Origin: Candidatus Thorarchaeota archaeon
GTDB taxonomy: Archaea > Asgardarchaeota > Thorarchaeia > Thorarchaeales > Thorarchaeaceae
Direction of reading: 5' to 3'
Assembly: GCA_016840855.1 (NCBI GenBank)
Contig: JAEORO010000114.1
Location: 1 to 30,953, forward strand
DNA: 30,953 nucleotides
The number at the start of each line of letters is the position of its first letter. Positions within the stretch are counted from its first letter, which is position 1. Below, one piece after another: positions 2,031 to 2,239 of the stretch. Under the pieces are notes generated by a model. That model did not search any database, had not been told where the DNA came from, and was given only the letters and a program-made list of their open reading frames with translations. The translations under genes were made by a program, and so were the position numbers.

Positions 2031-2104
2031 CCGACGCACCCTTGCGGGGTGTGTCCGACACGGCCCGTTTGTTTTCAGCCGCGCCTTCATCCGCCGCCAG
2101 TCAC
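2027..2104 (-). promoter_or_regulatory. Eukaryote-like SECIS element (Asgard type) of vhuU
   Basis: mRNA reads AUGAA-GGCGCGGCU-GAAAACAAACG-GGCCGUGUC-GGAC: AUGA (2090-2087) / GA core, 9-bp helix II (2085-2077 with 2065-2057) and apical loop with AAAA. A basal helix GUGACUGGCG (2104-2095) / CGUCGGUCGC (2036-2027) and a CCC-GCAA-GGG side hairpin are possible. Confidence 0.8.
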
Positions 2105-2239
2105 TAGCTCCTTCCTGACTAACTCGCGACCCTCATCGTCAACAACGACAAGATGAGCGCCGCAGGATAGTCAGCAGTCGTAACACCGAACCACCATCTC
2201 GATGAGGTTCAGTATTCCTTCAGGTATTTCGTCAGTCAT
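2087..2239 (-). CDS. vhuU: Selenocysteine-containing small subunit VhuU of a [NiFeSe] group 3c hydrogenase (50 aa, Sec23); absent from ORF track
   Basis: Manual translation: [50 protein letters not shown]; UGA at 2173-2171. Starts 11 nt after the vhuA stop with a GGUG SD-like motif; supplies the DxUxxCxxH (L2) motif that vhuA lacks; strongly resembles methanococcal VhuU as recalled; SECIS present. Confidence 0.92.
2126..2163 (-). promoter_or_regulatory. Stem-loop starting 7 nt 3' of the Sec UGA (SRE-like / bacterial-SECIS-like)
   Basis: GCGGC-G-CUCAUC-UU-GUCG-(UUGU)-UGAC-GAUGAG-G-GUCGC: 15 pairs by hand with one G.G mismatch and a UU bulge. Function is inferred. Confidence 0.55.

Follow-up and report, generated by a model that had tools for sequence, protein, structure and literature searches.

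One of the closest described relatives of the system reported here is the F420-non-reducing [NiFeSe] hydrogenase VhuADGU of Methanococcus (9SFI/9T1S chains g and M; PMC2933860, PMC9929600, PMC13518236), in which the C-terminal metal-binding segment (L2) of the large subunit is split off as the selenopeptide VhuU. Processed VhuU has 26 residues in M. voltae (PMC9929600), and the VhuU chain in 9SFI has 27. In Asgard archaea, Mariotti et al. (2016) described a Lokiarchaeota VhuU with a SECIS element of 9 bp and an 11-nt loop, whose AUGA core is at the same time the stop of VhuU.1 (PMC4989117). Huang, Xiao & Zhang (2024) reported the FrhA/MvhA/VhuU family in 68.3% of Sec-using Asgard genomes, Sec use in 77.4% of Thorarchaeia, and the extension of this family with its type I eSECIS-like element to Thorarchaeia (PMC11227280); VhuU has also been reported in Atabey- and Freyarchaeia (PMC11291895). 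For Loki- and Thorarchaeia, the portions of text available thus already report VhuU, its eukaryote-like type of SECIS and the stop overlap (PMC4989117, PMC11227280).

We analysed a 30,953-nt stretch of a Candidatus Thorarchaeota contig (the window, meaning the whole of this stretch), in which a vhu locus lies on the minus strand (Table 1). C, G, L and f numbers below are our labels for contigs, genomes, loci and families.

Table 1. Features of the vhu locus, numbered from the first letter of the window.
Feature	Position	Strand	Basis
vhuU, predicted selenopeptide with L2 metal-binding segment, 50 codons	2087..2239	-	NCBIfam and PDB alignment
In-frame TGA, codon 23, predicted Sec23 as first L2 nickel ligand	2171..2173	-	aligned to 9SFI_M
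Variant L2 motif	2153..2188	-	Cys22 for Pro, Cys19 for Ala; 76-locus comparison
UGA-CUA codon context	2168..2173	-	codon counts
Type I eukaryote-like SECIS	2054..2090	-	fold, covariation, lokiSECIS geometry of PMC4989117
Third SECIS arm CACCC-CGCAA-GGGTG, directly 3' of core	2037..2051	-	RNAalifold consensus, 49 Thorarchaeia loci
Lower stem (helix I)	2027..2104	-	2104-2095 (coding) pairs with 2036-2027; closes three-way junction
vhuA, 438 aa, large subunit without L2 segment	2251..3567	-	NF041785 VhuA, E 1e-146
vhuG, small Fe-S subunit, 307 aa	3564..4487	-	NF045875, E 1e-67
vhuD/mvhD, 151 aa, Cys form without in-frame UGA	4723..5178	-	PF02662, E 3e-50
hdrA-like genes	5182-6930, 6935-8233, 9647-12394	-	open frames without UGA
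hdrB	8245-9111	-	open frame without UGA
hdrC	9108-9629	-	open frame without UGA

The initial annotation had described a vhuA with an L1 motif that stops before the C-terminal nickel-binding motif, followed after 11 nt by a 50-codon frame with a UGA at the first L2 ligand, and the sequence bears this out. VhuA contains RICGICPIPH, lacks an L2 motif and closes with ...KLPEPLVKR-TAA; after a gap of 11 nt (2250-2240) the small frame begins with ATG at 2239, reads ...RCYDC-UGA-LSCGAH... and stops with TGA at 2089-2087. In a gap-free alignment its internal UGA (2173-2171) falls on the Sec of VhuU, written X in RAYDPXYSCAAH of PDB 9SFI chain M, and on the first L2 cysteine of the unsplit large subunits in 7T2R, 9SW2 and 5ODC. 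Chain g of 9SFI, a split large subunit of 418 aa, is the best PDB match of our VhuA (E 2.6e-129). The locus therefore has the features that mark VhuU, namely a stand-alone ORF of 45-50 aa with L2 downstream of an L2-less large subunit, and a UGA in place of the first L2 ligand, where orthologs have Sec or Cys.

The best NCBIfam match of the peptide is NF041786 VhuU (E 1.3e-14), at 53.7 bits against a cut-off of 70, and VhuA scores 488.5 against a cut-off of 800; the NCBIfam cut-offs for VhuU, VhuA and PSTK are methanogen-tuned, and that of NF041786 was passed by an M. jannaschii-type control and by none of six Asgard genomes. Since NF041786 is still the best-scoring family, the shortfall bars the methanococcal equivalog only and not the VhuU group of PMC4989117. 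The closest named VhuA homologs are mostly from Candidatus Thorarchaeota and nearly all 438-439 aa long. The expectation that standard annotation would call the enzyme truncated needs qualifying: close 438-aa VhuA homologs are named as ordinary large subunits, and it is VhuU itself that is lost. What public databases contain of VhuU is confined to Cys paralogs, versions with the UGA translated as Trp, and stubs; entries P0125, P0126, P0128, P0129, P0138 and P0139 are Trp read-throughs, of which some extend beyond the real stop codon, or a UGA-ended stub.

On the strength of its neighbours and best hits, with VhuA/MvhA chains leading in PDB and NCBIfam, the predicted enzyme is assigned to group 3c (Mvh/Vhu); as is typical of that group, it is encoded with MvhD/VhuD, MvhG/VhuG and HdrABC. 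The genome also encodes HypD and a hydrogenase maturation protease, and a search of this 92%-complete assembly for mcrA found none. Between vhuD and vhuG lies a 78-aa ORF (4490-4726, minus strand) with no Pfam match, which by eye resembles a small winged-helix protein. Elsewhere in the genome, C239 encodes another group 3 large subunit, this one unsplit and carrying RAYDPCISC, and there is a second vhuD-vhuG pair (C72:46085-44745, minus strand), 67% and 49% identical to the first, with no large subunit adjoining.

Compared with Methanococcus VhuADGU, the locus shows the same split, the same Sec position, the same partner genes (vhuG, vhuD and hdrABC) and, as predicted here, a short processed peptide. 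It differs in reading RCYDCU rather than RAYDPU, in a VhuA tail that is 17 residues longer, in a eukaryote-like instead of a methanococcal SECIS, and in that no vhuB adjoins vhuU. The Lokiarchaeota locus is alike in its VhuU of about 50 aa with one Sec, in the presence of vhuA and vhuG, and in its AUGA core serving as stop codon, 9-bp stem and 11-nt A-rich loop. It is unlike ours in the 3' core (AA in Loki VhuU, GA here) and in having Sec forms of VhuD and HdrA, for which we found Cys forms; all these comparisons follow the part of PMC4989117 that was available. Likewise, within the available part of PMC11227280, the Thorarchaeia loop is of G[U/G]AAA type whereas this copy starts GAAAA, and the selD core is GUGA, as it is on C21 here.

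The SECIS comprises an AUGA core (2090-2087) that contains the stop codon, a 9-bp stem (2085-2077/2065-2057), an 11-nt loop starting GAAAA, and a 3' GA (2055-2054). It thus has the layout of the lokiSECIS/Asgard type I eSECIS-like class, AUGA...GA with a 7-15 bp stem and an A-leading loop of 8-20 nt near the gene end. When 49 Thorarchaeia copies were folded jointly with RNAalifold, the consensus contained the SECIS stem, a lower stem that lies partly within the coding region, and a third helix, a short hairpin 3' of the core. In this fold 93.8% of cells are paired, against 33-46% in slid controls; two-sided changes occur in 13 of 17 pairs and the covariation score was reached by none of 500 shuffles, the structure being derived from the same alignment, which favours the fold. 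The lower stem has five pairs in the consensus structure, four of them with two-sided changes, and the third arm shows such changes in only one of four. Among 76 loose SECIS-pattern matches in the genome the vhuU element has the lowest energy (-15.0 kcal/mol). A single-sequence fold of 2110-2010 was not more stable than shuffles (z -1.13), and an Rfam scan of 1800-2400 returned no SECIS match, chance matches only. The AUGA stop overlap is missing from three stand-alone Cys forms of vhuU. One other SECIS-like match with a side hairpin (C110:32904) was rejected because no UGA-containing gene lies upstream; four more were also rejected.

A hairpin with a GC loop following the core was found in all 46 Thorarchaeia vhuU copies in which the core was located (49 examined; 21.0 expected from shuffles), in 15 of 16 other vhuU copies (23 examined; 2.2 expected) and in 23 of 28 selD rows (36 examined; 6.3 expected). 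The script behind these counts matched no vhuD rows and missed the selD core of this genome; judged by eye, the third arm is likewise present behind Sec-type vhuD genes and behind selD of the genome studied here. Neither this arm nor the D-C-U motif nor the CUA context is mentioned in the available text of PMC4989117, PMC11227280, PMC11291895, PMC9723677, PMC13188914, PMC2933860 and PMC13518236, and a search of the Huang supplement gave no hairpin, intron or DCU strings; figures and further supplements of the Mariotti and Huang papers may show the arm or the motif. As far as this text extends, cysteine in place of the L2 proline, a third hairpin common to selD and vhuD, and UGA-CUA are not in the published text.

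The 3' tail of vhuU is also the site of a direct repeat of 27 nt (26/27 identical), at 693-719 and 2004-2030, which brackets a single gene (785-1975; 396 aa) without a Pfam or NCBIfam match. The last 127 nt of contig C59 of the same genome (G000) repeat the start of the window exactly, and a third tail copy of 41 nt lies at C59:7776-7816, beyond an acyl-CoA ligase-like gene. Tail copies occur within 1.4 kb in 10 of the 30 loci L010-L039 (window included; two have almost no flank), all of the same genus, and the downstream genes vary among these loci. The repeat region looks like a hotspot of cassette insertion; no joint skipping 720-2003 is listed in the contigs, with run X1 lacking cover there. 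Further along, the window encodes four paralogous membrane-anchored proteins on the plus strand (20565-21704, 23712-24839, 24860-25936 and 26000-27427), with a common C-terminal region ending in a CPxC...CPFC zinc-ribbon motif.

The initial annotation had tied its reading to the presence of a Sec machinery, and one was found on contigs other than the window of this metagenome-assembled genome (92% complete, 6.3% contaminated). SelB (C72:31663-32691), SepSecS (C72:33065-34333), tRNA-Sec (C72:35074-35160; UCA anticodon, with a 9-bp acceptor and 7-bp D stem in its fold) and SelD (on C21, with its own in-frame TGA and a GUGA core) all score over their family cut-offs. A PSTK-like gene adjacent to tRNA-Sec (C72:35507-36178; E 1.8e-39) scores 136 against a cut-off of 290.5. 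The archaeal/eukaryotic Sec pathway is thus represented by four genes over cut-off and PSTK below it. TGA is the commonest stop in the genome and terminates 561 of 1544 long ORFs; hence it is not a general sense codon. By tblastn a conserved in-frame TGA is absent from every vhuD and hdrA copy of the genome, which leaves VhuU and SelD as the only selenoproteins recovered by these searches.

Two further observations concern selD in relatives. Four Thorarchaeia loci (L088-L091; G069, G027, G098, G103) carry a long SelD-domain gene (532-782 aa frame) that lacks UGA and gets a much higher score with the selD model; it is possibly bacterial-type, transferred or contaminating. In L096-L103 (G064, G047, G088, G070, G017, G028, G038, G076; families f19 and f7) selD contains a 30-nt in-frame insertion. 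In all eight matches, which were flagged with an extra TAA, it follows N/S-D-V-Y and ends in TAA. It folds with a co-varying inner hairpin, a 4-bp helix (4/4 pairs in 8/8) and two 3-nt bulges. Cutting at these bulges would fall exactly on the two ends of the insertion; the outer helix is imperfect, and removal of the 30 nt would restore the motif of intron-less selD. The insertion is a candidate bulge-helix-bulge intron in a protein-coding gene, and a literature search found no report of a selD intron in Asgard archaea.

The conservation of the UGA bears on whether vhuU could be a decaying pseudogene or a sequencing error that leaves the hydrogenase inactive. The vhuU peptide matches 246 of 301 genomes of the phylum, many only via ordinary full-length hydrogenases, and we inspected 76 loci: the 30 best-scoring (window included), 40 hand-picked across families (three of them for absence of the stop) and six from five more genomes. 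The ligand codon is TGA in 72 and Cys in four; the TGA spans at least eight families with the frame conserved after it, and 69 of the 72 TGA-bearing loci also end in TGA. Because selection was by score or by hand and the loci are kin, the counts make them look more independent than they are. Among the 30 Thorarchaeia loci that scored best, TGA is present in 30/30 and the frame is kept on both sides with mostly synonymous changes, which shows that frame and TGA are not chance. Among L040-L085 (n=46) a separate upstream VhuA frame is present in 38, one is fused and seven are uninformative; 35 of the separate frames end 80-134 nt before the Sec/Cys codon and three about 1.6 kb before. For contigs from four runs of four studies (summed depth 30-51) no other letter is listed at 2171-2176, one run possibly being the source sample and the contigs including other strains. 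The UGA is also found in cultured Promethearchaeum syntrophicum MK-D1 (L180), with the same RCYDCU gene and a side hairpin. A pseudogene might be suggested by TGA being the commonest stop and by one relative (L079) with a premature TAA in vhuU, yet the conservation already refutes it, and the co-varying SECIS and the lack of a listed variant in the four runs likewise stand against it; we give this explanation virtually no weight. The annotation's further points, that sequence after the UGA should be conserved in relatives, that the codon should match Cys or Sec in orthologs and that the TGA should not be an assembly error, all came out in its favour.

Stand-alone Cys paralogs of vhuU (D-C-C-L-S-C) occur at L047, L064, L076 and L176, with Phe replacing the terminal His in two. 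They are possible selenium-free backups. A weak search for homologs of a Cys paralog scored none among 20 candidates, and a 50%-representative search gave 16 proteins.

If the UGA were instead leaky, aided by its UGA-CUA context, and decoded as Cys, Trp or Arg, the product would be an ordinary [NiFe] enzyme. CTA follows TGA in 45 of 49 Thorarchaeia loci, at a genome share of 16% of Leu codons, and in fungi and animals termination at UGA CU(A) is weak, according to the available text of PMC4207609. However, CTA follows in only 11 of 23 loci outside Thorarchaeia and not at all after the selD UGA, and the loci are kin and not independent, so shared descent may explain it. Moreover, a dedicated tRNA-Sec, SelB and SepSecS are present, the SECIS accompanies the UGA forms, and the orthologous methanococcal position is Sec. 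We regard such read-through as very improbable.

The L2 motif itself raises another question, as it reads D-C-U-x-x-C rather than the usual D-P-(C/U)-x-x-C and so departs from the consensus D-P-(C/U)-x-x-C-x-x-H, with Asp, ligand spacing and His kept; all aligned PDB chains shown have RAYDP. With the L2 proline replaced by cysteine, the ligand assignment rests on the alignment. In C-x-x-C-U-x-x-C, Cys22 might bind nickel and Sec23, with Cys19, serve as a redox or protective residue. Of the 72 Asgard Sec forms, 70 have cysteine in place of the proline, as do three of the four Cys forms, and Cys19, directly after Arg (Ala in solved relatives), is found in 66 of the 72. In the gap-free alignment it is nevertheless Sec23, and not Cys22, that falls on the ligand site, with the bridging Cys three residues further on. 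Two Sec forms (L083, L084) have Pro or Asn instead of the extra cysteine and the Cys paralogs keep D-C-C; it is therefore a clade trait that Sec does not depend on. Nickel binding by Cys22 seems very unlikely to us. We also put forward, as a tentative and rather doubtful proposal, that Asgard VhuU is a [NiFeSe] variant of its own, C-x-x-C-U-x-x-C with a protective, reversible selenenyl-sulfide between the nickel-bound Sec and the cysteine next to it (this bond being speculation), together with a three-armed SECIS whose third, YGC-looped hairpin would dock the factor that takes the place of the missing SBP2, helped by a leaky eukaryote-type UGA-CUA.

In the favoured reading, with UGA as Sec, a mechanism can be sketched from methanococcal Vhu and general hydrogenase knowledge. 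tRNA-Sec would first receive Ser, which PSTK and SepSecS would convert to Sec using selenophosphate supplied by SelD. SelB/EFSec would bring the charged tRNA to codon 23 under the direction of the SECIS core, which lies 80 nt downstream; the second UGA sits within that core, where it would be too close for recoding and would terminate. VhuU may then dock into VhuA, where, together with the two cysteines of L1, Sec23 would act as terminal nickel ligand and Cys26 as bridging ligand. Once the metal had been loaded with the help of the Hyp proteins, the maturation protease would remove 21 residues after His29, the predicted new C-terminus, to leave a 29-residue peptide, and electrons would be bifurcated through VhuD-HdrABC to a disulfide.

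Collectively, we are highly confident that the frame is vhuU, that its UGA is very likely read as Sec by means of the stop-overlapping hairpin, and that the predicted [NiFeSe] enzyme would pass electrons from H2 to the Hdr complex. The proposal of a UGA-recoding organism with a [NiFeSe] group 3c enzyme is supported by the Sec genes, the conserved UGA and the co-varying SECIS, from which we infer Sec insertion and enzyme activity. The annotation of this locus is corrected accordingly: the hydrogenase is complete and probably selenium-dependent.
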